In this document: piece by piece, positions 1 to 28,682 of the stretch
Layout: every line of letters begins with the position of its first letter
How positions within the stretch are numbered: position 1 is the stretch's first letter
From: an uncultured delta proteobacterium
GTDB lineage: Bacteria; Desulfobacterota; Binatia; Bin18
NCBI GenBank assembly: GCA_963733195.1
Contig: CAVTCR010000050.1
Location: 96,001 to 160,000 of the forward strand
DNA: 64,000 bases
Direction: 5' to 3'
The notes under the pieces: model-generated
The model's input: only the letters and a program-made list of their open reading frames with translations
Database searches by the model: none
Told to the model about the DNA's origin: nothing
Program-made: the position numbers and the translations under genes

Positions 1-1035
1 GTCGGGACCTTCGAGGAAGGGTTACGCCGCTGTTTGAACGGAGCGGGAAGCCAAGGCAACGCCAGAAATGATCCATCGCAGGCAGGTGATAACAACGCCT
101 CCACGGCTCCTGGTGGGCGCGGATCTCGAATGGCTACAACAATCCGGCCCGGTTCGGCTCGAAGGGGCATTGCCGCTGCTGGCCCAATAGGTGACGCCAA
201 GCCGGGCAGACATGGAGCGGTACGGCGCGCCCGTAACGAACTGTTATCCTTTCAACTATTACAACACGCGCACCAACATCATTGGCTTTACCTCGACCTA
301 CAATGACTTTGAGTACACCGGCGCGGTGTTCCGCATAGAAGAGAGCTTCAGCACCAAGGAATATGTCCGCAAACTGGCGCAGGCTTCGGGCGCAACGCGC
401 GAACGCGAACGGTGGGGCAGGACCGAACCTCACTCCCAGCCAATTGCGAAGCTGAATGCCTTTACGGTCAACAAAGACTACCACACCTACACTGGCGTGT
501 GGCGCTCGATGGTCGGCTTTGACTTGCTCAAATCGGTGCCGTCCTTCAAGTACATTCCCTTCCTCCACCATTCCTTCTCTGACCAGGCCTGGTTCTTCAC
601 CGGGCAATGGTTGATGAAGAATCGGTGGAATAACGTGGCTAACCCGTTGTGCTACGTGGTCGATAACGCTGGCAATGGCGTACACCAAAGAAGAGGCGAA
701 GAGCACTGTCACGCCAAGATGGCAAGCGACACTATGGCAACGCACAGTGTCGGAACTATCGCTGGGAGCACTTGTTCTCACTGGCGGCGGTCAACCAAGG
801 GTTGTTCGCCAGTCGGTTGGAGACCCGCAACGCGGTGGCGCTTGAGCCCCGCTCTCAGGACATGCTGCTGTTCTCGCAGTGGTGGTGGCGCAACGTGTTG
901 GGGTATGAGCAGATTGAACTCTCCATGGGCGTAGCCTGGTATCCAGGCAGCAGCATGAGTCAGGGCTGGAGTGGTCTCTACGCGTTTGCTGACCGCGACC
1001 AGGTGTGGTTTGAGATGACGTACTACCTCCTCTAA
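1..1035 (+). CDS. DUF1302-like outer-membrane protein, 3' part (runs off the left edge, frameshifted); paralog of 6826-9061
   Basis: ORF pieces 191-934 and 772-1035 join into a beta-strand-rich C-terminus ending DRDQVWFEMTYYLL; DNA is highly similar to 8050-9061. Confidence 0.65.
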
Positions 1036-1083: not shown

Positions 1084-2571
1084 CTTTTCATTACCCACAT
1101 CTTGCCAACTTAGCGAGACGGGCGGTAGAGGAGAAGCCCAGGAGGAAGTGAGCCGATGGGAACGGGAACTGGAAGGACAGAGGAGAACTGGGCGGTGACG
1201 GAATTTGCGGAAGCCGAATTGGGCGATGCGCGGCGCACGCAGCGGGTGATCCGCATGGCGACGGTCTTAGCGCAGCAGCCGATGGCGAGCCTGCCGGAGG
1301 CGTGTGGGAGTCCGGCGGAGCTGAAAGCGACCTATCGTTTCTTCGACAATGAGGCGGTCTCCCCGGCGGAGCTGTTAGCCAGCCATGTGAGCGCGACGTA
1401 TGAGCGGGCAGTGCGAGTGCCCGTGGTGTTAGCGGTGCAAGATACCACGGAGGTAGACTGGACGGCGCATCCGGCGACGACGGGGATGGGGCCGATCGGG
1501 CATCCCAAGCATCGGGGCTTGATGGTGCATAGCACGCTGGCGTTTACGCCGGAACGGGTGCCACTGGGATTATTAGCCCAAGACGTGTGGGCACGCGATC
1601 CAGAGAACGTGGGTCAGCGGGCGACACGGCGGCATCGTGCGATTGGGGAGAAAGAAAGTGGGAAGTGGTTGCGCAGCTTAGCAGCGGTGAATGAGGCGCA
1701 GCATGAGTGTCCGCAGACGCACTTTATTAGTGTGGGGGATCGCGAAGCCGATGTGTACGATTTGTTTGTCGCCGAGCGGGCGGAGGGCGTGGACTTACTC
1801 GTGCGTGCGGCGTGGGATCGGCGGGTCGCGCACGAGGAGCGGTATCTGTGGGCGGCCGTGCGGGTGCAGCCGGTGGCCGAGATTGTCCCCGTGCCCGTGC
1901 CCCGCCAGGGCGCTCAGCCAGCCCGCACGGCGGTGCTGACGTTGCGCTTTGGCGCGGTGGAGGTGTGTCCGCCCGGGCATCGCCGGGCCGAGCGGTTGCC
2001 GAGCGTGACGATCTGGACCGTGCACGTGGTCGAGGAGTATCCTCCGGCGGGCGTGGAGCCCCTGGAATGGTTACTGCTCACCACCTGCGAAGTGCCTTCA
2101 CCCATCGAGGCCCTGGAGTGCGTAGAGTGGTACGCGTGTCGGTTTGGCATTGAAGTCTGGCATAAAGTGCTTAAGAGTGGCTGTCGGATTGAAGCCCGAC
2201 AGTTAGAGAGCGCCGCCCGCTTGCAGCGCTGTTTAACGCTCTTCAGTGTGATCGCCTGGCGCATTGTCTATGCCACGATGCTCAGTCGCACGCTGCCGGA
2301 GTTACCCTGCACCGTCCTGTTGGCCGTGGAGGAATGGCAAGCCTTGCACTGCGCCACTCATCACACGCCGACCCCGCCGCCCACGCCCCCCACACTGCAC
2401 GAGGTCGTGCAATGGATTGCCCGCTTGGGTGGGTTTCTCGGACGGCCGGGGGATGGCGATCCCGGCGTGACAGTATTGTGGCGCGGGTTTCAACATTTAG
2501 CCGATCTCACTCGCATGTATGTGCTCCTCCGCTCACCTACGCTAAGTGCTCCAAATGTGGGTAAAGGTTAG
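1084..2571 (+). mobile_element. IS4-family (IS50/Tn5-like) insertion sequence, about 1.49 kb
   Basis: 19-bp imperfect terminal inverted repeats CTTTTCATTACCCACATCT (1084-1102) and revcomp CTAACCTTTACCCACATTT (2553-2571), resembling Tn5 ends; encloses a transposase. Confidence 0.9.
1156..2571 (+). CDS. IS4-family (Tn5/IS50-like) DDE transposase
   Basis: Motifs LGDARR, VQDTTE, GDREAD, Y..R..IE.WHKVLKSGC, IARLGGFL..GDGDPG...LWRG; stop codon lies inside the right TIR. Confidence 0.95.
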   Translation: MGTGTGRTEENWAVTEFAEAELGDARRTQRVIRMATVLAQQPMASLPEACGSPAELKATYRFFDNEAVSPAELLASHVSATYERAVRVPVVLAVQDTTEVDWTAHPATTGMGPIGHPKHRGLMVHSTLAFTPERVPLGLLAQDVWARDPENVGQRATRRHRAIGEKESGKWLRSLAAVNEAQHECPQTHFISVGDREADVYDLFVAERAEGVDLLVRAAWDRRVAHEERYLWAAVRVQPVAEIVPVPVPRQGAQPARTAVLTLRFGAVEVCPPGHRRAERLPSVTIWTVHVVEEYPPAGVEPLEWLLLTTCEVPSPIEALECVEWYACRFGIEVWHKVLKSGCRIEARQLESAARLQRCLTLFSVIAWRIVYATMLSRTLPELPCTVLLAVEEWQALHCATHHTPTPPPTPPTLHEVVQWIARLGGFLGRPGDGDPGVTVLWRGFQHLADLTRMYVLLRSPTLSAPNVGKG

Positions 2572-2765: not shown

Positions 2766-3095
2766 CTAACTGTTCGTTATAGCGGCTCGAATAGCCTCAA
2801 GTACGATATTGGGTTCGCGAAGTACGTCGTGATTCCAGAACCGTAAGACGTGGTACCCAAGACATTGTAGGTATTGTGTTCGCTGGTCATCCTGCTCTGT
2901 TCGTGTGGCATGTTGTCCACCATCGAGTTCTATCACCAGCTTCGGCTCCAAGCAGAGAAAGTCCACGATGTAACTACCGATTACTTGTTGGCGACGGAAT
3001 TTCCAGCCTTCGAGTTGGCGGTTCCTGAGTCGATACCAGAGCACCTTTTCGGCGTCAGTTTGGTGTTTCCGTAGGGCTCTGGCCAAGTGTTTCAT
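2766..3095 (-). CDS. DUF559 (Vsr-like PD-(D/E)XK) endonuclease domain protein
   Basis: ARALRK.QTDAE..LW..LRNRQL.G.KFRRQ..IG.YIVDF.C....L.IELDGGQH...D..R...L...GY.VLRFWN; likely start MKHL at 3095. Confidence 0.9.
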   Translation of the reverse strand: MKHLARALRKHQTDAEKVLWYRLRNRQLEGWKFRRQQVIGSYIVDFLCLEPKLVIELDGGQHATRTEQDDQRTQYLQCLGYHVLRFWNHDVLREPNIVLEAIRAAITNS

Positions 3096-3117
3096 CGCAA
3101 GAAATCTTACCTTGCTT

Positions 3118-3155
3118 CCCCTCATCCTGACCTTCTCCCGCAGGGAGAAGGAACC
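3118..3155. repeat. REP-like hairpin upstream of the DUF559 gene
   Basis: Identical to 2628-2665; imperfect inverted copy of 2730-2763. Confidence 0.85.
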
Positions 3156-3185
3156 TGAAGCCGTCCGCACAATGAGTTCCAAACA

Positions 3186-6100
3186 CTACTGGCTACTTCC
3201 TTCCAATTCCCCCAACAGCGCCCTCGCCTCTTGCAAATCCTCAGTCTCATATCCGTCGGTAAACCACCCACAAAGTTCAGATAACATACGGTGTGCTTCC
3301 GCGAGTCGCGAGGGCAGGTCGTGTTGCGTGTTACGTGTCATGAGTTGCGTCACTTGTTGTTGTCGCAGCCGCACTAGGCTCATCACCGCGCGCAACTCTA
3401 GCGATTTGGCTTGTTGCTGTCGTGCGGTGTCGATGGCCTTGAGGAAACACGCTTCGGCATCCGCCTTGGGGATCGTGGGTAGGGTCGGTGGATGATGTTA
3501 GGGACTTGGATTTTCGGATTTTTGCCTTTTGCTCTTTTGACCTATTCTGATCTCTGGCCTTCCTGCTGTTCAAGAAGGAGTTCTCCCTTGATTCGGTAGA
3601 TCTCTGCCTCAAAGAACCGCTCTCCACTGTTATTCATGGCAGTTTCTGCTGCCGCAATCATCGCCAGTGCATCCTCAGTTCGTTCCAGGTTTCCAAGCGC
3701 TGCCGCAAGGAGCCCCTGCCAGAGCGACATTCCAATTCGCACCTTGGCGACATGCATCGCCTCGATCCCTTGGAACATCAGATGCACACCTTCATCACTC
3801 TGTCTTTGTGTGATAAGTGCTCCCCCTCGCAGGAGCATCCCGAACGCCAGGTATTGAACGAACCCATGCGTTTGCGCCACTGGCAACAATATATCGATCT
3901 GCTCCTCGCCTGCTTCTCCGTCTCGCAGGTTCACGCGCAGCCATGCAGCAAGAAGAAGAGACGACACACTCGTATACGGATGAGACAATCCCTGTGCCCA
4001 AGCCACAGCCTCGTGGCTCTTCTGTAAAGCTAACGTTGGCTGCCCAAGAACCCACAGGATCAAGGCATCAAAAGATAACGCTAACATTTTGGGGTCAAGT
4101 AGATATTGGGGATGTTGTTGCATGTCGTAGAGCAGCGTGGTTTCGACACAGAACGTATGAGCAGCAGTAAAATCGCCACGGTAGAATGCACAGATGCCTG
4201 CCGTAAGCTGGCCCCAGAGGCACACCGCAGCGTCCCCTTCCCGCTCAGCTTTACTAACTATTTGTTCAGCAATCTCCTGCGCCGTCGTTAGCTCCCCGCG
4301 GACCAGCCTCACCAACCATAACCCCAAAAGCACAATAGACGGGAATTCGCTGTCTCCCAGTTGTTGATGCAGCTTGATAATCCGCTCGTAGACGTGTTCA
4401 ACCTCTACTGAGGCTTCTCCTTTGACTGCAATGAATGGGCCCAGCACAGTTACGTGCAGAAGAATCTCCTGCTGGGTACGTTCAGGCGTGTCTGGCCAGT
4501 GGTGGAGTAGTTCGATGCCCTTGGCAAAGTGGGCATGCGCTTCGTGAAAGGCGCATCGCCACACAGCATTTTCTGCAGCCTGTTGTGAATACTGCACTGC
4601 CCGACGATAGTCGCGCCCTAGCGTAAAGTGCCGCGCTAAGGCAGTCGCGTTTTCTTTGGTTTGCTCTCGGTATCCCGTCTCCAGCCGTGTCCCAATGCGG
4701 AGATGCAACCGAGCCTTCCGTGCGTCTGTCACTCGTTGGGAAATCACCTGCTGATATAGTGAGTGAATAAAACTGTAGCGCGTTGCCACAGTTTCGTCCG
4801 GCCATTCTTCGACTCCACAAGGACGCAGGAATTGCCCGTGATGAGCAAGTTCGCGACAGCGGTCCTCGATCTCCACAACATCGCTCTCGACCCCAGCCGC
4901 CACCGCAGCCGCAGAGAACTCGACGCCGACAACACTGGCCACTTCTAATATCTGTTGCTCTGCGGCACTGAGTCGTTCGAGCTGCTTCTCGATCATCTGT
5001 TGCAAACTCTCTGGTACCACCTCCAGCATCTGCTCCATCGATTGCAGGGACCACCCTTCGCCTTCTCTATTGCTGTGTGCCATCAGATAGTCGACCACAT
5101 TCACCAGAAAGAGTGGATTCCCGTCGGTCCGTCGATGCAGATACGCTGCCCAAATATGAAGGGGTATTCCGTCTCTGACTTCTACCGGTAAGCGCGTATC
5201 GAGATACGTCGCGACGTGGTCTTGGGTAAGCAACGGCAGCGCAATGTCTTCACATTGGTGATGCAGAAGAAGATCTTGTTTGAGGGTTGCCAACAGATAT
5301 CCGCCGTTAGCAACTTGTTTTGGTCGATAGGTGCCGATCAACAACAGACGCGCTGGTCCACGCCTGCGAGCAAGAAATGCAAGGTAATCGAGCGTCGAGG
5401 AATCACACCAGTGTAGATCTTCGAGCACCAACACCAACGGACGGCTGGCAGTCAGGACTTCCGTCACTTCGGCCATCTCGCGCAACATCCGCTCTCGCGT
5501 AGCACCTAGTGTCCGGCGCTGCAATTCCTCCACGTCGGCGTTACTGAGAAGCGCAGGAAACTGCATCAACCACGTTGGCGCGTACTGCCGGAGAATTGCA
5601 ATCAGATGCTCCCCTCCCGGCTCTCGACACATACGCCCTGTCACATCAAGTAATGGTAAATAGGCCTCTCCTGCACCGTGATGCTCGATGCACTGGCCGT
5701 AGGCGAGCCACAAATGAGGATTTGGGATTTGGGATTTGGGATTTGCGTTTTGACTTGCTTCTGGACTCTGGACGCTAGACGCTAGACTCCGAAGAAAGGC
5801 TTCGACCAGCGCGGTCTTCCCAATCCCCGGCTCGCCAGAAATAAAGACAATCTGCCGTTCGCCATTGAGCGCGCGATCTAACAAGTGGTGGAGTCGTTCG
5901 AGTTCGGGCTCGCGACCGACAAGGGAGGGGGTCGAGGGTCGGGAGTCGGGAGTCGGTTGAGGAAAGTGCTGCCGAACTTTTTGTTGCTTTTTCTCTGACC
6001 CCTGGCCCCTGACCCCTGACCCCTGAGGCAGCAGCGCAGCCGCAACCGGTGCAATAAACCGATACCCTCGTCGGGCCAGCGTCTCAATGAACCGTGGGGC

Positions 6101-6379
6101 TTCGGCATCATCTCCGAGGGCTTTGCGCAGCTCGCGCACGCAGACGATCGGCACGACATCACTCACAGTGGTACCGGGCCAAACCTCATCAAGCAGCTCC
6201 TCTTTAGTGACAAGCCGTCCGGCGCGCTTAACCAGACAGCGCAGCACGGCAAAGGTCTTCGGTCGTAACGAAACATGTTGCGATCCGCGCCACAACTGCT
6301 GGTTCTCGACATCGAGGCGAAAAGGTCGAAAGAGGATTTCTTGCGCTTCGTACACCAGCTGTCCCCCTTTTGAAGACAA
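3186..6379 (-). CDS. Winged-helix (OmpR/ToxR-type) + STAND AAA ATPase + TPR transcriptional regulator; frameshift near 3500-3545
   Basis: N-terminal LRPKTFAVL..LV...GRLVTKEELLDEVW...FIETLARRGYRFIA; Walker A GEPGIGKT; LVLEDLHW; TDGNPLFL; C-terminal LRAVMSL...WFTDGYETEDLQEARALL in ORF 3186-3395. Confidence 0.9.
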
Positions 6380-6407
6380 TTTGAAGCCAACTTGAATGAA
6401 ATTTGAA
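6370..6407. promoter_or_regulatory. Four TTGAA boxes at exact 11-bp spacing, putative wHTH regulator binding array
   Basis: TTGAA at 6370, 6381, 6392 and 6403, at the start of the wHTH regulator in the divergent promoter region. Confidence 0.55.
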
Positions 6408-6598
6408 GCGTTCTGTTATGACTTTTGACGCAAAATCTGTGTATTTCCCTCTACCAGCACGGTCTGGCTATATTGGCGTCGCCTTATAGCACAAGTAGAG
6501 AAGTACGCAAATAAAATTTGCAGCAGGGCGTAGGAAAGGAGGAGCAAAGATCTCACAACAAAACTAAACCAGACTTCAAGAGATCGGCGCAGCAGAGT

Positions 6599-6656
6599 TG
6601 TCACCCTGAACGAAGTGAAGGGTCTCTCGAGAGATTCTTCGCTGCGCTCAGAATGA
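6599..6656. repeat. CGTC/TGTC-type palindromic REP
   Basis: tgtcaccctgaacgaagtgaagggtctc...gagattcttcgctgcgctcagaatga; related copy at 30824-30892. Confidence 0.8.
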
Positions 6657-6825
6657 ATGGCACAGTGGTCACTCGTAAGGAGTGCTTCTCGTACGTACGG
6701 AAGCAGGGAAACGGGGCGGTGCTACTGCAGCACCGGCTGTGACCAGATGCAGACGGTGGGCATGGGCAATAGAAGGACCACCGTACATTCAGACAAATAC
6801 AGCTTGATAAGGAGGGAGTGAGGTC

Positions 6826-9061
6826 ATGAGGGATATCTTTCGCAGGAAAAAATGGATCGTTAGCTTGGCCTTGTTGCTAGGCGGAATCCTCTATGCCGGT
6901 TCGCTCGCATGGGCATCGACGCGAATTGGCAATGCGGAACTGCAGATGTGGTACCGCATGCGGAATACGTTCCACACCGCTGGGGGCGATAATATTAACT
7001 GGGTGCAGTGGCGCAACGAGGTCTATTTCTGGTTCGTCTACGATGGGTTTGTCGATAACGGGAAAATCCTCGGACAAGACAAGCTTGAACTTCCGTGGAT
7101 CGAAAACGCCACCTTCAATGCCCGTTATCGTTTCCGCGCCGACCCGGTCTGGACGATTCGCGAGAGCTATACAAAGCGCTACGACCATGACGAACGCAAG
7201 AGCTATCTGTTTCCTGAGAATGGTTTTCGGGATTTGTTCGTCGACCTCGATTTCGGGCAGGTCGGACGCGGCAGACTCTCCGCCCGTATCGGTAAGCAAC
7301 AGATCGTATGGGGCGAAGTCTGACCTGTATCGCTCGATTGACGTGATCAACCCGCTGCGCATTGATCAAAACCAGGGTGCAGGAGAGAAGTTCGATGAAT
7401 TTCGCTCGCCGATTTGGGCTCTTAAGCTGAATTATAGCATCGGCAATGTGGGCAGTTGGTTCTCGAACGTGTACATCGAACCGTTCTATACCCCAGGGTT
7501 TCGGGGTCCGAGCTTCAGACTTGATCATTGACGGCGGCCTCCTCCGTGCGCCCTTTCATCTCAAAGGCTGTTTGAACGACAACAACGAGCTGGTGAAGTA
7601 CAGCCCGCAGGCCTGTTCGTTCCGAGCGGGCCGATGGATCGCGAGTGTTCGTGCCGTGGAACCCGAGTTGGAAGAGCCGGTCAGCCTCCCGCCATCCGTG
7701 GGCGTTTTTTGGCCGGTCGCAGAACCCACGGGCCGGCACTCCTGACTTCTGCTAATTCAGTCGGACTCCCCGGATATTGCCAACACGCGCGATCATCTTA
7801 CGTTCCCAACGTCTACAAAGGCACCTGTAAAGGACGCACTAAATGGCATGTGGCAGGGGTGTACCTCCGCGGCCGGGTTTCGCATCTTCGGTACCAGCGT
7901 CTGGCGGCTTCGACTTTTCGCTGAACTACGCCAACATTCCCGGTCGGGCTTTCAGCGACCTTTAACTTTAGCGAGTTGGCCGCTAGCCGCGATCTCATCG
8001 GTCTATGGCGATGCGGACATTGCCGCAGAGCTGGGGCTCGCGGCTCCACAGGGCACGTTTGAGGAAGGGTTACGGCGCTGTTTGAATGTGGCAGAGGGAG
8101 TCAAGGCAATGCCCTAAACTCCAAGTCTCAGAGCACCCGGGAACGAGGCGGACACTCTTGTCTGGCGGGATCTCAATGGCTACAACAATCCGAGTCGCTT
8201 CGGCGCCGAAGGGAGCGTTGATCGCCGATGGCCCTAATAGAGGCGACGCTAAGCCGGGCCGGCATGGGGCTCTACGAGCACCGATGACGTTCTGTGCGCC
8301 GGCACATTATAACTGGACCCGCACCCATGTCATCGGGTTTACGTCCACCTACAATGACTTCGAATACACTGGTGCAGTGTTCCGCATTGGAGCAGAGCTT
8401 CAGCACCAAGGAGCATGTCCGCAAACTGCCTGCGGGCACTGGGCGCAATGCCGATCTCACAGGGGAAACTGCAGCCAAAAACCTGGCGTTTTCTCGAATC
8501 AGGACTACCACACCTACACTGCCGTGTGGCGGTCGATGGTCGGTTTTGACTTGCTCAAGTCGGTGCCGTCCTTCAAGTTACATTCCGTTCTTGCATCACT
8601 CCTTCTACGATCAGGCGTGGTTTTTCACCGGGCAGTGGTTGATGAAGAATCAGTGGAGCAACATCGCCAACCCGCTGTGCTACGTTGTCGATAACGCCGG
8701 CAATGGGCTCACCAAACAAGAGGCGAAAGAGTTGTCGCGGCAGGATGGCAAACGCCATTATGGTAATGCACAGTGTCGGAACTACCGCTGGGAGCATCTG
8801 TTCACACTGGCGGCGGTCAACCAAGGGTTGTTTGCCAGCCGGGTGGAAACTCGGAACGCGGTGGGGTTCGAGCCCCGCGCTCAGGACATGCTGCTGTTCT
8901 CGCAATGGTGGTGGCGCAACGTGTTGGGGTATGAGCAGATTGAACTCTCCATGGGCGTAGCCTGGTATCCAGGCAGTAGCATGAGTCAGGGCTGGACTGG
9001 TCTCTACGCTTTTGCTGACCGCGACCAGGTCTGGTTTGAGATGACGTATTATCTGCTCTAG
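6826..9061 (+). CDS. DUF1302-like outer-membrane beta-barrel protein (several frameshifts)
   Basis: Signal peptide, RBS GGAGG, motifs RIGKQQIVWGE / SDLYRSIDVINP / DEFRSPIWALK across ORFs 6826-7323, 6893-7531 and 8294-9061; aromatic C-terminus. Confidence 0.7.
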
Positions 9062-9179
9062 TAACAGTAGACAGTAGACAGGATAAAGGAGTCAAGGGGA
9101 AAGGATAATGGGACTCGTAGGCTTTCCATGATGGTTACGTTGTCTCTCATCTGCTTGGCTACTGACTACTGATCTACTT

Positions 9180-10790
9180 ATGCCTTCAGCCATGCGCCCA
9201 CGCAAACGCGCGAACTGGCCAGTTATCGTGTACCGCTACTGGGTAGACCCCGAGTACAACACCTGGGAGCGTCTCCCACGCGTCATCCAACAGGAAGCAG
9301 AGGCGATGCGGGCATTGTGGAATCAGCTGGTCACTGCCTTTGTCCAACGTCAAGCTACTTATCACAACACAGTCGCGGCTCTCCCTCCCACAGCGACAAT
9401 AGAAACTGGAGAGTGTTCCCCCTCTATAGCCAACACGACAGTGAAGCCTTCACCACTCGTGCTGCGCCAGTTGCAACAAACATTTCTCCAGACAACCCAG
9501 GAGGTGAGCAAAGCTTCTTCTGTCACTTGGGCGAACAAACAGTTCATTACTACACAATTTTTTGCCGCCCTCACACGATTTTTCAAGAAACAAGGCGACC
9601 CTCCACGGCAACGAACCGGAGAGTTTCGTGAGGTTCATTTTCAGCATCGCTTCACCGAGGGCGGACTGCCGATCGAGCGGATCTTTGGCCATAGTCAGCG
9701 ACTTTGCCTTACGTCCGTTGCCCCTGACGCCTTCTCTCCTGCCCTTTCTCAGCGACAACAAAAAAGATTGGCGCGCACAACTGGGGCTTTCCAAGTCAAT
9801 GGTTGTATTGTGAAATTTCACACGATTTTGCACCGCCCACTTCCATCAGGCGCGTATCTTAAAGTGGCTGCACTGATTGGCAAGCGCATTATCCAAGAAG
9901 GTTATCACTGGAACGGTGTTGGGGGGCAGCCGACGCCTGCGCGCTGGAACTGGTCGTTGCAGCTCACGCTGGAAGTGCCTCCTCAGCCACTCCCAACCCT
10001 GTTGCCCAAGGCAACGGCAGCACTACAAATTCGCTGTGAGTTGATCGATGAGCAACATGTGAGTTTCGCTATTTTGACAGATGCCACAGGACGTGAAGAG
10101 GCCTTTTTTCTCCCCGAAACATTGCTTACCTCTTGGCAGTACAAACGCAGACTGCAAAAGCAAGCCGATCAACTGCTGGAAGTCACCAAACAGCAATTAC
10201 AAGATCTACCACTAACGGGGCAATCGCCCAGCACTCAACAGCGATTCTCCCATCTCAGAGCGGCACGCGCCCCAGGGTTGTGGCGATTATTCCAGGTATT
10301 AGAACAAGAAGGCGCATCGGATGCAGCCATACAGCTCTTACGCCACTGGGCCAGTTGCTCAACCAAGTTGCTGCGTGAAGCGCGCGGATTGGAGCAGCGC
10401 TATCTCGGTCATCGCGATTGGTTTTATCACAACCTCGCGTTGCAGCTCTGCCATCGTTATCAACAACTTGTTGTCACGGTATCAGACATAACCGCAACAT
10501 CAGCCGAGCAAGACAGCAGAATCATTGCCGCTCCTCACGAGTCGCAAATTTATCGCCAACTTGCAGCCCCAGCTCGCTTTTTATCCTTTCTGCACCAAGC
10601 AGCAGACAAGACTGGCACGACAGTGAAAGAAGATTTGCGGATTGCAACACGTCGGACATTACCGGCAGCAAAGACCACTCGTTTCCAGACCCAGTTCAGC
10701 GGGGAAAAAGCTGAAACTATAGCCCAAAGTCTATCGAAAGTAGCCAGTAGTCAGGAGTCAGTAGAGAAGGAAGTAGTCAGTAGCCAGTAG
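9180..10790 (+). CDS. Nuclease-dead Cas12m (type V-U1)/TnpB-like protein, orphan
   Basis: Ordered motifs like Cas12m: VYRYW..LWNQLV, TWAN, QKRLART, ILHRPLPSGA, WSLQLTLE, LRHW...K...EARGL....LGHRDWFY, RQLAAP.......A..KTG; RuvC-I position reads AALQIRC, RuvC-II reads LVVTVSD; no zinc finger or RuvC-III. Confidence 0.7.
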   Translation: MPSAMRPRKRANWPVIVYRYWVDPEYNTWERLPRVIQQEAEAMRALWNQLVTAFVQRQATYHNTVAALPPTATIETGECSPSIANTTVKPSPLVLRQLQQTFLQTTQEVSKASSVTWANKQFITTQFFAALTRFFKKQGDPPRQRTGEFREVHFQHRFTEGGLPIERIFGHSQRLCLTSVAPDAFSPALSQRQQKRLARTTGAFQVNGCIVKFHTILHRPLPSGAYLKVAALIGKRIIQEGYHWNGVGGQPTPARWNWSLQLTLEVPPQPLPTLLPKATAALQIRCELIDEQHVSFAILTDATGREEAFFLPETLLTSWQYKRRLQKQADQLLEVTKQQLQDLPLTGQSPSTQQRFSHLRAARAPGLWRLFQVLEQEGASDAAIQLLRHWASCSTKLLREARGLEQRYLGHRDWFYHNLALQLCHRYQQLVVTVSDITATSAEQDSRIIAAPHESQIYRQLAAPARFLSFLHQAADKTGTTVKEDLRIATRRTLPAAKTTRFQTQFSGEKAETIAQSLSKVASSQESVEKEVVSSQ

Positions 10791-11182
10791 CCAGTAGCCA
10801 GTAGTCAGCATGGAACGGGAGAACGCCTCCAGCATCTTGCTCACCTCATCGAAGAGAGCTCCAGGAGTACCGTGGTGTTTCCGTGTTATGCTTTGTGACC
10901 GTTGCAAAGACGCTAGCTTTTGATTACCCTCGCCCTCCGGCGAGAGCGGTATCGATTCGCGAAGTTTGGAGGGGTTTAAGGAAAAAAGCCGAGCGGACAA
11001 AGCCCGTTTCTACGACATCGTCCAGGGTTCGCTGGAAGAGTGCCGCTGTTACATGATCTCTGCCGGAGACTGGGCTAAGGAAACACCACAATACTCTTGG
11101 CAGTCATTGGATGCGGTGAGCACGATGTGCCGAACTCTCGCTCTATGCTGCTACTGACTACTGAATGCTGACTACTGGCTAC
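10739..11182. pseudogene. Four-helix-bundle (23S IVS/bAvd-like) gene remnant bracketed by inverted AGTAGYC heptamer arrays
   Basis: 10966-11157 reads EGF..KS.ADKARFYDI.QGSLEECR.Y; arrays (agtagcc)n at 10739-10808 and (ctactga)n at 11151-11182; second inverted remnant EVSKMLEAFSRSM at 10810-10882. Confidence 0.7.
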
Positions 11183-12189
11183 CTGATCCGCCGTCGATAC
11201 GCGACGTAATTCGCACACACAAACGCTCCGAGTTTCTCTGCCGTGCGACGAGACGGCCAGTTATCGTCAAGCACTAACGTGTAGCTCAGATACTTCGCTC
11301 CGCGCCGTACGAGTTCCAGATATCCATAACTCGCCATCGCCAGATTCACTCCACGTCTGCGGTCTGATTCCCGCACACCGATAGCTAACACGTTCAGACG
11401 TTCGTCATCGTGAACGGTACGTCCTGGTTTGAGGACAACCTCAGCATCGTGCTCCGGGACAAGCAGTAACATCCCCACCGGCGTATCATCACGATAGGCT
11501 AGTACTGACGTGTCCAGCATCCCGCTACGTGTCAACGCCTTTATCAATCCCGCCATTTCGGTCTCACTGTACGGAGTCCAGCCCCAGTGCGCCTTGAAGG
11601 TGTCATTGAATGTGTCGACAAAATCGTGGACTCGCCTATGCTCTGGTACATCTCGTAATGGAATAATGGCATAGCCGGCACGGCGCGCTGCTTCGAGCAT
11701 ACCAACCCACCGGACGAGTAGCTCTGGACGAACCTCGATTTTGTAGTCAACGAAGCCCTTCTCACTCTCAAACCCCGCCTCTTTCAACAACGAGTGATAG
11801 TATGGCGGATTAAGTCGCAAGACATTGGGCGGCAAAGTCTCGTACGCATCGATGACAAAGGGGAATTCAAGCATACCATGTCCAGCACGTGCAGCGTTCG
11901 CTCCCTGACTTTGCAACCAGTCGCAGGCTTCGTTGATCAGCAATTTCACTGCTTCGCGTTTCTCTGGGAGTGCTTCAAACCAACAGAGATGCCCTAGTCG
12001 CTCTTGCCAATGACGCTGATAACGCGCATCGATGACTGCAAGAACCCGTGCAACGATCTGGCCGCGCTCACTCGCAACGAAAGGCCGCACCGTGCGTGCT
12101 TCATTGAAAGCACTCTCGCCACAAAGTACTGCCATCTCGAAGCGAGCCGCAGGTTTCCAGTATGCGCTCCGTATGCACTGCTCGTACAC
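11179..12189 (-). CDS. GNAT-fold N-acetyltransferase-like protein (YghO-like); 5' end probably frameshifted
   Basis: NPPYYHSLL, FNDTF..HWGWTP, AIGV....RRRGV, YTLVLDDNWPSRR. Confidence 0.65.
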   Translation of the reverse strand: MYEQCIRSAYWKPAARFEMAVLCGESAFNEARTVRPFVASERGQIVARVLAVIDARYQRHWQERLGHLCWFEALPEKREAVKLLINEACDWLQSQGANAARAGHGMLEFPFVIDAYETLPPNVLRLNPPYYHSLLKEAGFESEKGFVDYKIEVRPELLVRWVGMLEAARRAGYAIIPLRDVPEHRRVHDFVDTFNDTFKAHWGWTPYSETEMAGLIKALTRSGMLDTSVLAYRDDTPVGMLLLVPEHDAEVVLKPGRTVHDDERLNVLAIGVRESDRRRGVNLAMASYGYLELVRRGAKYLSYTLVLDDNWPSRRTAEKLGAFVCANYVAYRRRIR

Positions 12190-28592: not shown

Positions 28593-28682
28593 TCAGTAAC
28601 CAGTAGTCAGTAGCCAGTAGAGAGACAGAAATACCACTTCTCAGGAACTGACAACTGAGAACTGACAACTAGGAACTGAGTT

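Follow-up and report, generated by a model that had tools for sequence, protein, structure and literature searches.

A truncated, nuclease-dead Cas12m relative with a solitary repeat and guide is a likely RNA-guided regulator of DUF1302 outer-membrane protein genes

Introduction

What becomes of a CRISPR (clusters of regularly interspaced short palindromic repeats) effector that has neither an array nor the residues for cutting DNA? The question is raised by a 64,000-nt stretch (hereafter, the window) of a contig (C50) from the genome of an uncultured delta proteobacterium of the class Binatia (GCA_963733195.1, CAVTCR010000050.1, positions 96,001 to 160,000; genome handle G000), in which an open reading frame (ORF) encodes a protein resembling Cas12m, the effector of type V-M systems. 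A first-pass annotation, made from the letters of the window, had proposed a further-reduced, array-less and domesticated RNA-guided binder. That proposal gains support from sequence homology, predicted fold, a dead and truncated RuvC domain, the ratio of nonsynonymous to synonymous substitution rates (dN/dS) and conserved gene linkage. From the same kinds of sequence evidence we consider it likely that the protein, here called dCas12m, is an exapted type V-M effector acting as an RNA-guided transcription factor on genes of the DUF1302 outer-membrane protein family. Coordinates of all features are collected in Table 1.

Relationship of the protein to Cas12m

The ORF is present as first annotated, and every motif then quoted occurs in its translation. 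The likely start is M5 (nt 9192), as most relatives begin at an MR.RKR motif matching this residue. At the other end, the last ~50 codons are an unconserved read-through across the RNA element described below, and residues 489-536 of an AlphaFold2 (AF2) model are predicted to be disordered (predicted local distance difference test, pLDDT, <50).

The likeness to Cas12m, previously judged by eye, now has computed support. A phmmer search against all PDB chains matched 23vw_A, 'CRISPR-associated DNA-binding protein Cas12m', at E 1e-11 and a second chain, 23vu_A, at E 0.028; with a profile of 20 family sequences the same chains were reached at E 3.5e-33 (profile positions 40-490 of 503) and E 5.3e-19 (positions 3-484 of 503), respectively. 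Foldseek with the AF2 model (mean pLDDT 78.4) returned Cas12m and Cas12m2 cryo-electron microscopy chains as its top four matches (E 6e-19 to 5e-16, the best being Cas12m2), followed by dCas12f, TnpB and Cas12f. The Foldseek TM-scores are low (~0.35), as expected because a multi-lobe apo model is compared with RNA- and DNA-bound complexes. By all three methods, homology extends across the WED, REC and RuvC-scaffold parts, which is the structural match that the first-pass annotation had named as a check. Pfam and NCBIfam scans of the protein gave nothing significant. The 'HR' of LHRPLP is invariant in the family and aligns to Cas12m 'LHREIP'; the structural description in PMC10442227 (Omura et al.) has a conserved WED His-Arg pair reading C(-1) and G(-23) of the CRISPR RNA (crRNA) handle.

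The catalytic and C-terminal parts of Cas12m are missing. In HMMER alignments, the column of the RuvC-I Asp (Cas12m 'AAIDLGW') holds Gln in the window protein and varies across the family (Q/H/L/E/D/R/G), and the Glu column of RuvC-II ('LEEF') holds Thr/Val and varies as well. Conservation stops after 'KTGT(E/T)', where Cas12m goes on into its CxxC zinc finger and the DQDxNAA motif of RuvC-III; a zinc finger is encoded in none of the three frames downstream of the ORF, and the RuvC-III motif is absent. The protein thus has neither the RuvC triad (D-E-D, H-D-D or N-D-D in the variants that PMC11013384 gives) nor the C-terminal zinc-finger (TNB) domain, and the earlier calls on all of these sites hold. 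An arginine-rich helical insertion at the position of the GoCas12m 'Roof', as PMC11013384 describes that element, is kept in the relatives P0041, P0050 and P0069; a short variable linker replaces it in the window's clade. Together, these comparisons leave us virtually certain that the protein is a dead Cas12m derivative.

A word-indexed protein search yielded 73 homologues, nearly all of 440-540 aa and of the same truncated form, with identities down to 43%; their named sources are metagenome-assembled genomes of Candidatus Binatia or 'Deltaproteobacteria', and all are annotated as hypothetical. The truncated form is common to about 70 relatives of 480-520 aa. An exhaustive profile search returned 1824 cluster representatives at E <= 1e-3, 134 of them at E <= 1e-30. 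From these, 36 more distant representatives (~500-620 aa) were retrieved, and in those examined in full for the motif check, Asp at RuvC-I, Glu at RuvC-II, the zinc finger and DQDxNAA are all in place. D/E/D and CxxC..DQDxNAA are likewise found in the nearest relatives of full length (P0077-P0079 and others, ~600 aa). Because the distant relatives keep their catalytic parts, the truncated family is a small branch that arose from within the ordinary Cas12m-like proteins. An intermediate form is seen in P0069 (558 aa), with E at the RuvC-I site, K at the RuvC-II site and the zinc finger retained.

The family is under purifying selection. Sixty protein columns are invariant, and dN/dS is 0.117 against the homologue at locus L013 (dS 1.33) and 0.05-0.13 in four further pairs with estimable dS (dS at least 1.3). 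The earlier annotation would have given way had close homologues been full-length and array-linked while this copy evolved neutrally; we find that the close homologues are truncated too and that dN/dS is ~0.1. The gene is patchily distributed: it occurs once in the window's genome, in 3 of 151 sampled genomes of the class, and in 13 of 55 sampled genomes of the order to which G155 and the genus of the window belong. A near-complete genome of the same family (L037/L130; G043 = G193, C2:277108-277992) has a degraded Cas12m-like copy, with two to three in-frame TGA stops, a retained RuvC-I Asp and no repeat.

The solitary repeat

The C-terminal tails of the homologues come in three flavors, which are one DNA sequence read in three frames. 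This sequence is a CRISPR-type repeat, identical save for one loop base in the window and 20 of 26 related loci; of the remaining six loci, three are cut off short of the 3' end of the gene, so that the repeat is present in 21 of 24 sources. The conserved flanking RNA element for which the first-pass annotation had advised a search is therefore found. Its invariance persists although synonymous sites are saturated. The repeat also stands behind second or newly found gene copies (L036, L038, L047, L078, L127 and L129), and it occurs once in the 6.9-Mb genome of the window.

The repeat has the architecture of a Cas12m crRNA handle. In the Cas12m2 scaffold, as PMC10442227 describes it, a flipped-out A(-24) is followed by G(-23), which pairs with A(-2), and by a 6-bp helix of C(-22..-17) with G(-8..-3); A(-2) and C(-1) then lead into the guide. 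Positions 10693-10717 of the window reproduce this order at the level of sequence. As a control we took plasmid pPRO1 of Pelobacter propionicus, on which a Cas12m-like gene is followed on the same strand by four 36-nt repeats, each ending in G, two matching 6-nt arms around a 9-nt loop, and AC; the window repeat, too, is downstream of the gene on the gene's strand and agrees with the pPRO1 repeat in this layout. The adjacent array of at least two repeats that normally accompanies Cas12m is absent, the repeat being single-copy in the genome and contig C50 carrying no array. We conclude that the element is very probably the protein's repeat plus guide.

In TnpB systems, the omega-RNA overlaps the 3' end of tnpB, and the repeat and guide of the window are placed likewise. 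Of the cis- or trans-encoded guide first considered, the cis form is favored: the guide lies directly behind the solitary repeat that overlaps the ORF 3' end, repeat and guide together covering 10688-10729. Neither of the two places first suggested is supported: the region 9062-9179 is not conserved apart from heptamer repeats, and the leader at 6666-6825 is conserved in close relatives only and holds no repeat-like element. The report of no array, cas1 or tnpA in the window extends to the whole of contig C50, on which we found no cas1, no array by k-mer scan and no Y1 tnpA; the solitary repeat had been missed. A genome-wide search for arrays, also advised, did not tie one to this protein: the arrays lie on other contigs and have unrelated repeats. 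The genome has cas1 matches on five other contigs (C14, C28, C51, C62 and C73); on C51 and C73 stops or frameshifts interrupt the gene, by assembly error or decay. Rfam gave no significant match in window positions 8900-11300.

Nor is Cas12m always array-linked, which the first-pass annotation had given as its normal state. A plasmid of Candidatus Manganitrophus (CP114559.1, 3869-5795; L104) carries a full-length Cas12m-like gene without an array, which keeps the RuvC-I Asp, the zinc finger and DQDKNAA and has a solitary repeat of like architecture right behind its stop codon, upstream of a TolC/RND efflux operon. We looked for the target of this solitary guide and did not identify one. The plasmid locus hints that solitary-repeat Cas12m regulators may be more widespread.

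Transcription of the element is weakly indicated by contigs from soil and sediment RNA libraries: at 1-2% difference they match parts of the ORF, and one of them reaches across a relative's repeat and guide. In published descriptions, Cas12m crRNAs are ~50 nt long, of which ~30 nt derive from the repeat, and pre-crRNA processing is RuvC-independent.

The guide and its probable target block

Past the repeat, conservation is partial for 12-14 nt and then ends. In the window's genome, the guide 12-mer has two other occurrences, one of which lies upstream of, and antisense to, a DUF1302 paralogue, ~1.5 kb before the window's first base (target site, Table 1). Other 12-mer hits in this genome, C14:31970 (upstream of a CoA-transferase-like ORF) and C3:70188, were judged to be chance matches; they are without the CGCCT flank and have no counterpart in G016. 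A cis search with the first 16 nt of the guide and up to three mismatches found nothing in any locus, and the 12-nt seed search alone was informative.

We then measured matches that are anchored at guide nt 1, in sites upstream of and antisense to a DUF1302 gene. Their lengths are 12 nt in G000, in the metagenome contig L013 and in G157, 12 and 13 nt in G016, 11 nt in G198 and G200, 10 nt in G151, G153 and G154, 7 nt in G155 and 5 nt in G152. Matches of 10-13 nt, with co-variation, are therefore found in 9 of 11 genomes or contigs; the 11 cases represent four lineages and are not independent.

Guide and site change together. In G016, which is of the window's genus and has two gene copies, the 12-mer matches the orthologous site and nothing else outside the guides, and at nt 12 guide and site both have A, in place of the G that both have in G000. 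The L013 match lies upstream of the DUF1302 gene that directly precedes dCas12m. In the G157 lineage, reconstructed from L022 and L006 (which overlap by 1904 identical bases), the order is site, DUF1302, dCas12m, repeat and guide; nt 7-8 are GG in guide and site alike, and the DUF1302 upstream site is the sole non-guide match of the 12-mer in the G157 genome. G198 and G200 are also of the GG type at nt 7-8. In G155, nt 5 is A in guide and site, and in G151, G153 and G154 guide and site share a 1-nt register change and a different core. Thus, co-variation is seen at nt 5 (G/A), nt 7-8 (CC/GG) and nt 12 (G/A) and in the register of the G151-154 clade, and in a guide-by-site matrix each guide fits its own lineage's site best. 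Second dCas12m-repeat-guide modules occur at L038 (G016), L047 (G154) and L078 (G155); their guides have nearly the same 5' ends as those of the first copies and differ in their 3' parts.

The sites lie in a block that consists of an A-tract, TTGC.., N17 and TATAAGGCG, points at the DUF1302 gene from 170-390 nt upstream, and is the best-conserved part of the DUF1302 upstream region outside the ribosome-binding site. Its variable positions are exactly those opposite guide nt 7-8. All sites are preceded by CCT or CGT. We estimate the probability of a chance match in G000 very roughly at ~1e-3, from two stray 12-mer hits and the share of positions (~5,600 of 13.9 million) that fall in the 400 nt upstream of DUF1302-like loci, of which the genome has only seven; the estimates for G016 and G157 are similar or smaller. 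A fixed guide to a conserved host regulatory region, together with conserved linkage, is what distinguishes exapted factors, and both are found here. On these grounds of sequence, the DUF1302 upstream block is probably the target.

A guide-like site within the window qualifies this assignment. It lies in a homologous promoter-like block that points at the divergent regulator gene, and its 10-mer (6485-6494) is invariant among loci. As this 10-mer differs from the guide at nt 7, the guide seems to tell the two blocks apart.

Gene neighborhood

The co-oriented outer-membrane gene noted upstream of dCas12m belongs to the DUF1302 family and is directly upstream and co-oriented in 17 of the 19 loci whose upstream sequence is 500 nt or longer. 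The two others, L007 and L008, are also without the repeat. The gene downstream of the repeat element is on the opposite strand.

Two arrangements can be told apart. In type-1 loci (L013 and L022+L006), the guide-matching block heads the DUF1302-dCas12m pair itself. In type-2 loci (the window, L011/G016, L002/G155, L005/G152 and relatives), a divergent regulator gene and TTGAAG-like repeats come before the pair, and it is a different DUF1302 gene, 12 kb upstream in the case of the window, that has the guide-matching block at its head. The direct repeats, similar in L011, L002 and L005, are probably binding sites of the regulator. A clean A/B naming of the paralogues was dropped; the DUF1302 tree does not separate 'adjacent' from 'targeted' copies, and the copies are defined by context.

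Table 1. Features of the dCas12m locus. Positions are those of the window unless given as genome:contig:position.
Feature	Position	Strand	Remarks
Paralogous DUF1302 gene, 3' part	1-1032	+	Putatively targeted copy; ATG at G000:C50:94779, outside the window
IS4/Tn5-type transposase gene	1129-2568	+	Tnp_DNA_bind + Dimer_Tnp_Tn5; between targeted paralogue and regulator/DUF1302/dCas12m module
DUF559 endonuclease-like gene	2769-3185		Between targeted DUF1302 paralogue and regulator module
Divergent large regulator gene	3542-6379	-	Trans_reg_C winged helix + AAA_16 ATPase + TPR; also in L002, L005, L011
Four TTGAAG/TTGAAT direct repeats	6370-6408	+	Spacing 10-12 nt; between regulator and DUF1302 genes
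Guide-like site, CGCCT + 10 nt	6480-6494	+	9/10 match to guide, mismatch at guide nt 7
DUF1302-family outer-membrane protein gene (Pfam PF06980)	6826-9061	+	Directly upstream of dCas12m, co-oriented; broken into several frames in this assembly
Dead, truncated Cas12m-like ORF	9180-10790	+	536 codons open, 536 aa
Conserved core, ~ residues 5-484	9192-10631	+	From family comparison
Solitary CRISPR-type repeat, 30 nt	10688-10717	+	Overlaps ORF 3' end
Repeat layout	A10693, G10694, 5' arm 10695-10700, loop 10701-10709, 3' arm 10710-10715, AC 10716-10717		6-bp stem, 9-nt loop
Fixed guide (3' end provisional)	10718-10735	+	First 12 nt (10718-10729) match target
Target site (putative)	G000:C50:94479-94490	Antisense to DUF1302 paralogue	12-nt guide match, 290 nt upstream of ATG

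Proposed mechanism and alternative explanations

We propose that an exapted type V-M effector has lost its RuvC residues, its REC 'Roof' and its zinc-finger/RuvC-III end, and that the retained WED, REC and RuvC-scaffold parts would hold a crRNA and a DNA target. Its RNA partner would be encoded in cis, as the single Cas12m-type repeat at the ORF 3' end and the fixed guide behind it. Repeat and guide would be transcribed within the DUF1302-dCas12m message; the protein would bind the repeat hairpin and possibly trim the RNA; the complex would pair the first 10-13 guide nt with the DUF1302 upstream block, beside the C(C/G)T motif; and by occupying the -10/spacer part of the block it would hinder transcription initiation. 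In type-1 loci (L013 and the G157 lineage), where the bound block heads the protein's own operon, the result would be negative feedback. In type-2 loci (the window and most other genomes), where it heads a DUF1302 paralogue, the result would be a paralogue switch like that of fliC-associated TldR, the dCas12m gene there being accompanied by a further copy of DUF1302 and by a divergent SARP-like regulator. We infer that the RNA is transcribed and processed and that DNA is bound, as we do the protospacer-adjacent motif (PAM) and the sign of regulation, and on balance repression is the effect that we favor.

Published work on related proteins makes the steps plausible. Cas12m is described as binding DNA without cutting it and as silencing transcription. 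Its 17-18-bp heteroduplex read-out is attributed to the Roof and a RuvC insertion, and TnpB is described as reading ~12 bp. Guides of 9-11 nt at promoter elements are reported for the oppF clade of TldR, and dCas12f proteins are reported to be C-terminally truncated likewise.

Several observations weigh against this interpretation. The guide-site matches are short, at 10-13 nt; only 7 consecutive nt match in G155 and only 5 in G152 (11 of the first 14), and in G156, whose DUF1302 gene is at a contig edge, no site was found. The apparent PAM, C(C/G)T, would differ from the published TTN/YTN and is read off the sites only. The likeness of the guide to the 6480-6494 site does not co-vary with the guide, so that part of the likeness reflects a promoter family. 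A sigma-70 scan calls no promoter at the target block or near the element; at the block this is because the -10 lacks its final T, and it leaves both 'promoter' and 'repression' as interpretations. Three distinct sister-clade loci, L007, L008 (= L125) and L027, have no recognizable repeat, and the folding energy of the repeat hairpin is ordinary (z -0.22) and was not used as evidence. Both DUF1302 copies are frameshifted in the window's genome, by assembly error or decay. Finally, the metatranscriptome contigs may be DNA carry-over, and they are available as assemblies only, with small shares and without strand or ends; stretches that they leave uncovered carry no weight.

The same DNA binder might instead activate or position transcription, for example through recruitment of RNA polymerase or of the neighboring SARP-like regulator, in the manner of dCas12f and sigma-E. 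PMC13472631, in its account of such a system, provides a natural activating precedent, the target block is not called by the sigma-70 scan, and type-2 loci adjoin a large gene of transcription-activator type; however, no conserved partner, whether a sigma factor or another gene, is fused or adjacent at every locus, and the regulator is missing from the type-1 loci L013 and L022+L006. The site, moreover, overlaps the -10-like hexamer and the spacer of an A-tract/TTGC/N17/TATAAG block aimed at the gene, a position that suits occlusion. We regard activation as unlikely.

Slightly less likely still is that the protein binds the repeat in its own mRNA and acts in cis, post-transcriptionally only (on stability, 3'-end formation or translation), and that the likeness of guide and site is a shared promoter or operator motif. 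The position of the repeat inside or beside the ORF 3' end would fit such a role, as would the shortness of the matches and the 6480-6494 block, which shares 9 of 10 nt without tracking the guide. A shared motif sits poorly, however, with a stretch that starts exactly at the first base past the repeat, has unrelated flanks on both sides, and enters the promoter spacer, where no promoter constraint is expected and where it nonetheless co-varies (nt 7-8, nt 12 and register shift) in four lineages; and the element is followed downstream by a gene on the opposite strand.

That the locus is a decaying type V-M remnant, a dead effector with its last repeat and no present function, or a defense against mobile elements is very improbable: decay would also yield the loss of array, catalytic residues and C-terminal domain, and both the frameshifted DUF1302 genes and the clearly degraded copy in G043/G193 would be in keeping with it, but dN/dS of ~0.1, the 73 homologues of one truncated form with their 60 invariant columns, the invariant repeat and the conserved synteny speak against it, as does a guide that is conserved within lineages and matches a chromosomal site rather than a mobile element, and the repeat pattern has 0 matches in viral contigs.

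Comparison with known systems

We return to the preferred reading, an RNA-guided transcription factor on DUF1302 genes. Natural factors of this sort have so far been described from TnpB (TldR) and from Cas12f (dCas12f-sigmaE), and dCas12m is a new lineage of this already known kind.

Cas12m (MmCas12m2, GoCas12m and PmCas12m) is closest in sequence and fold and shares the handle architecture with the guide 3' of the handle; by published accounts it already binds DNA without cutting and silences transcription. Of its defining features, the window protein shares homology and handle architecture and lacks three, the triad, the zinc finger and the array. The window protein has one repeat and no array or nearby adaptation genes; its RuvC-I/II residues are unconserved, the TNB zinc finger and RuvC-III are deleted, and the 'Roof' is lost in its clade. 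Its match of 10-13 nt compares with a published 17-18-bp heteroduplex for Cas12m, its target would be the upstream block of a chromosomal gene and not a mobile element, and its apparent PAM is C(C/G)T and not TTN/YTN.

With TldR (fliC-, csrA- and oppF-associated), as published, it shares a nuclease-dead, C-terminally truncated protein, a fixed short guide encoded beside the gene, stable linkage to a family of host genes, a match of the guide to the promoter region of either a paralogue or the linked system, and a paralogue-switch logic that resembles fliC-TldR. Like TldR, it is without transposon ends or tnpA, and the contig has no Y1 transposase. By contrast, it descends from the CRISPR effector Cas12m and not directly from transposon TnpB, its nearest relatives being Cas12m; its RNA has a 30-nt CRISPR repeat and not a long omega-RNA-type scaffold; and it is larger (~480-aa core with a REC2-type region), from another phylum and aimed at another target family (DUF1302). 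It is not a TldR by descent, yet on paper it works like one.

The dCas12f-sigmaE system, as described, is likewise an exapted type V effector; its array and its C-terminal nuclease parts have been lost, and it now controls outer-membrane uptake genes (there, susCD). It differs in its sigma-factor partner, which the window system lacks, and in its parent subtype (V-F against V-M), and the site position in the window suggests occlusion, not promoter-independent initiation. Standalone repeat-like regulators (mini-arrays, cr-like RNAs, CreA, tracr-L and scaRNA) also send a Cas effector to repress a promoter by means of a lone repeat and a partly complementary spacer; in published accounts, though, they work with CRISPR-Cas systems that are otherwise complete and competent in immunity, and the genes they regulate are mostly cas or toxin genes, whereas what is reduced to a dedicated regulator in the window is the effector itself, with nothing left of an immune module.

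A literature search found no description of a Cas12m-derived array-less regulator or of a link between Cas12 and DUF1302; the supplementary tables of PMC10691335 and PMC11013384, which cover many Cas12m/TnpB clades, may list the family. We lean toward viewing dCas12m as an independent exaptation after TldR and dCas12f, and the first from the already cleavage-deficient type V-M: a protein of ~480 aa without zinc finger or 'Roof', with a repeat at the end of its ORF and a ~12-nt guide that appears to co-evolve with a DUF1302 promoter, serving operon autoregulation or paralogue switching.

If this is true, a route of exaptation was taken again, from an effector that had already given up cutting. 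The system would be a very small natural DNA binder (~480-aa core, 30-nt handle, ~12-nt guide), of interest for compact CRISPR interference and epigenome tools, and it would give, in an uncultured lineage that is poorly studied, the first regulatory handle on outer-membrane proteins of the DUF1302 family. Because guide and promoter co-vary, the hypothesis is directly testable with few constructs.

Additional observations

Heptamer repeats of the form CAGTAG(C/T), or their complement, occur in the window at 9158-9171, 10778-10805, 11150-11163 and 28601-28614, just before the dCas12m start in L011, L005 and L010, and after the guide in L013, L014 and L026. The genome has only five tracts of at least three units. 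The tracts place a stop codon in all three frames. Those on either side of the dCas12m gene are oppositely oriented, so that the gene's transcript could pair at its 5' and 3' ends. Many unrelated metatranscriptome contigs match positions 10770-10808.

Upstream of the DUF1302 gene, a leader at ~6700-6790 is conserved between the window and L011 and forms a hairpin with a differing loop; Rfam gave no significant match in 6380-6830. A short ORF at 10966-11157 has a partial match to a 23S rRNA-intervening-sequence protein below the cut-off (23.3 vs 33.8 bits) and is probably a gene fragment. Outside the window, G000:C50:94296-94341 (L088 1334-1379) resembles the Rfam Acido-Lenti-1 RNA (34.2 bits against a gathering threshold of 37, E 5e-6); it has a hydrolase gene on one side and the guide-matching block on the other, and ~100 nt further on a palindromic unit like it recurs.

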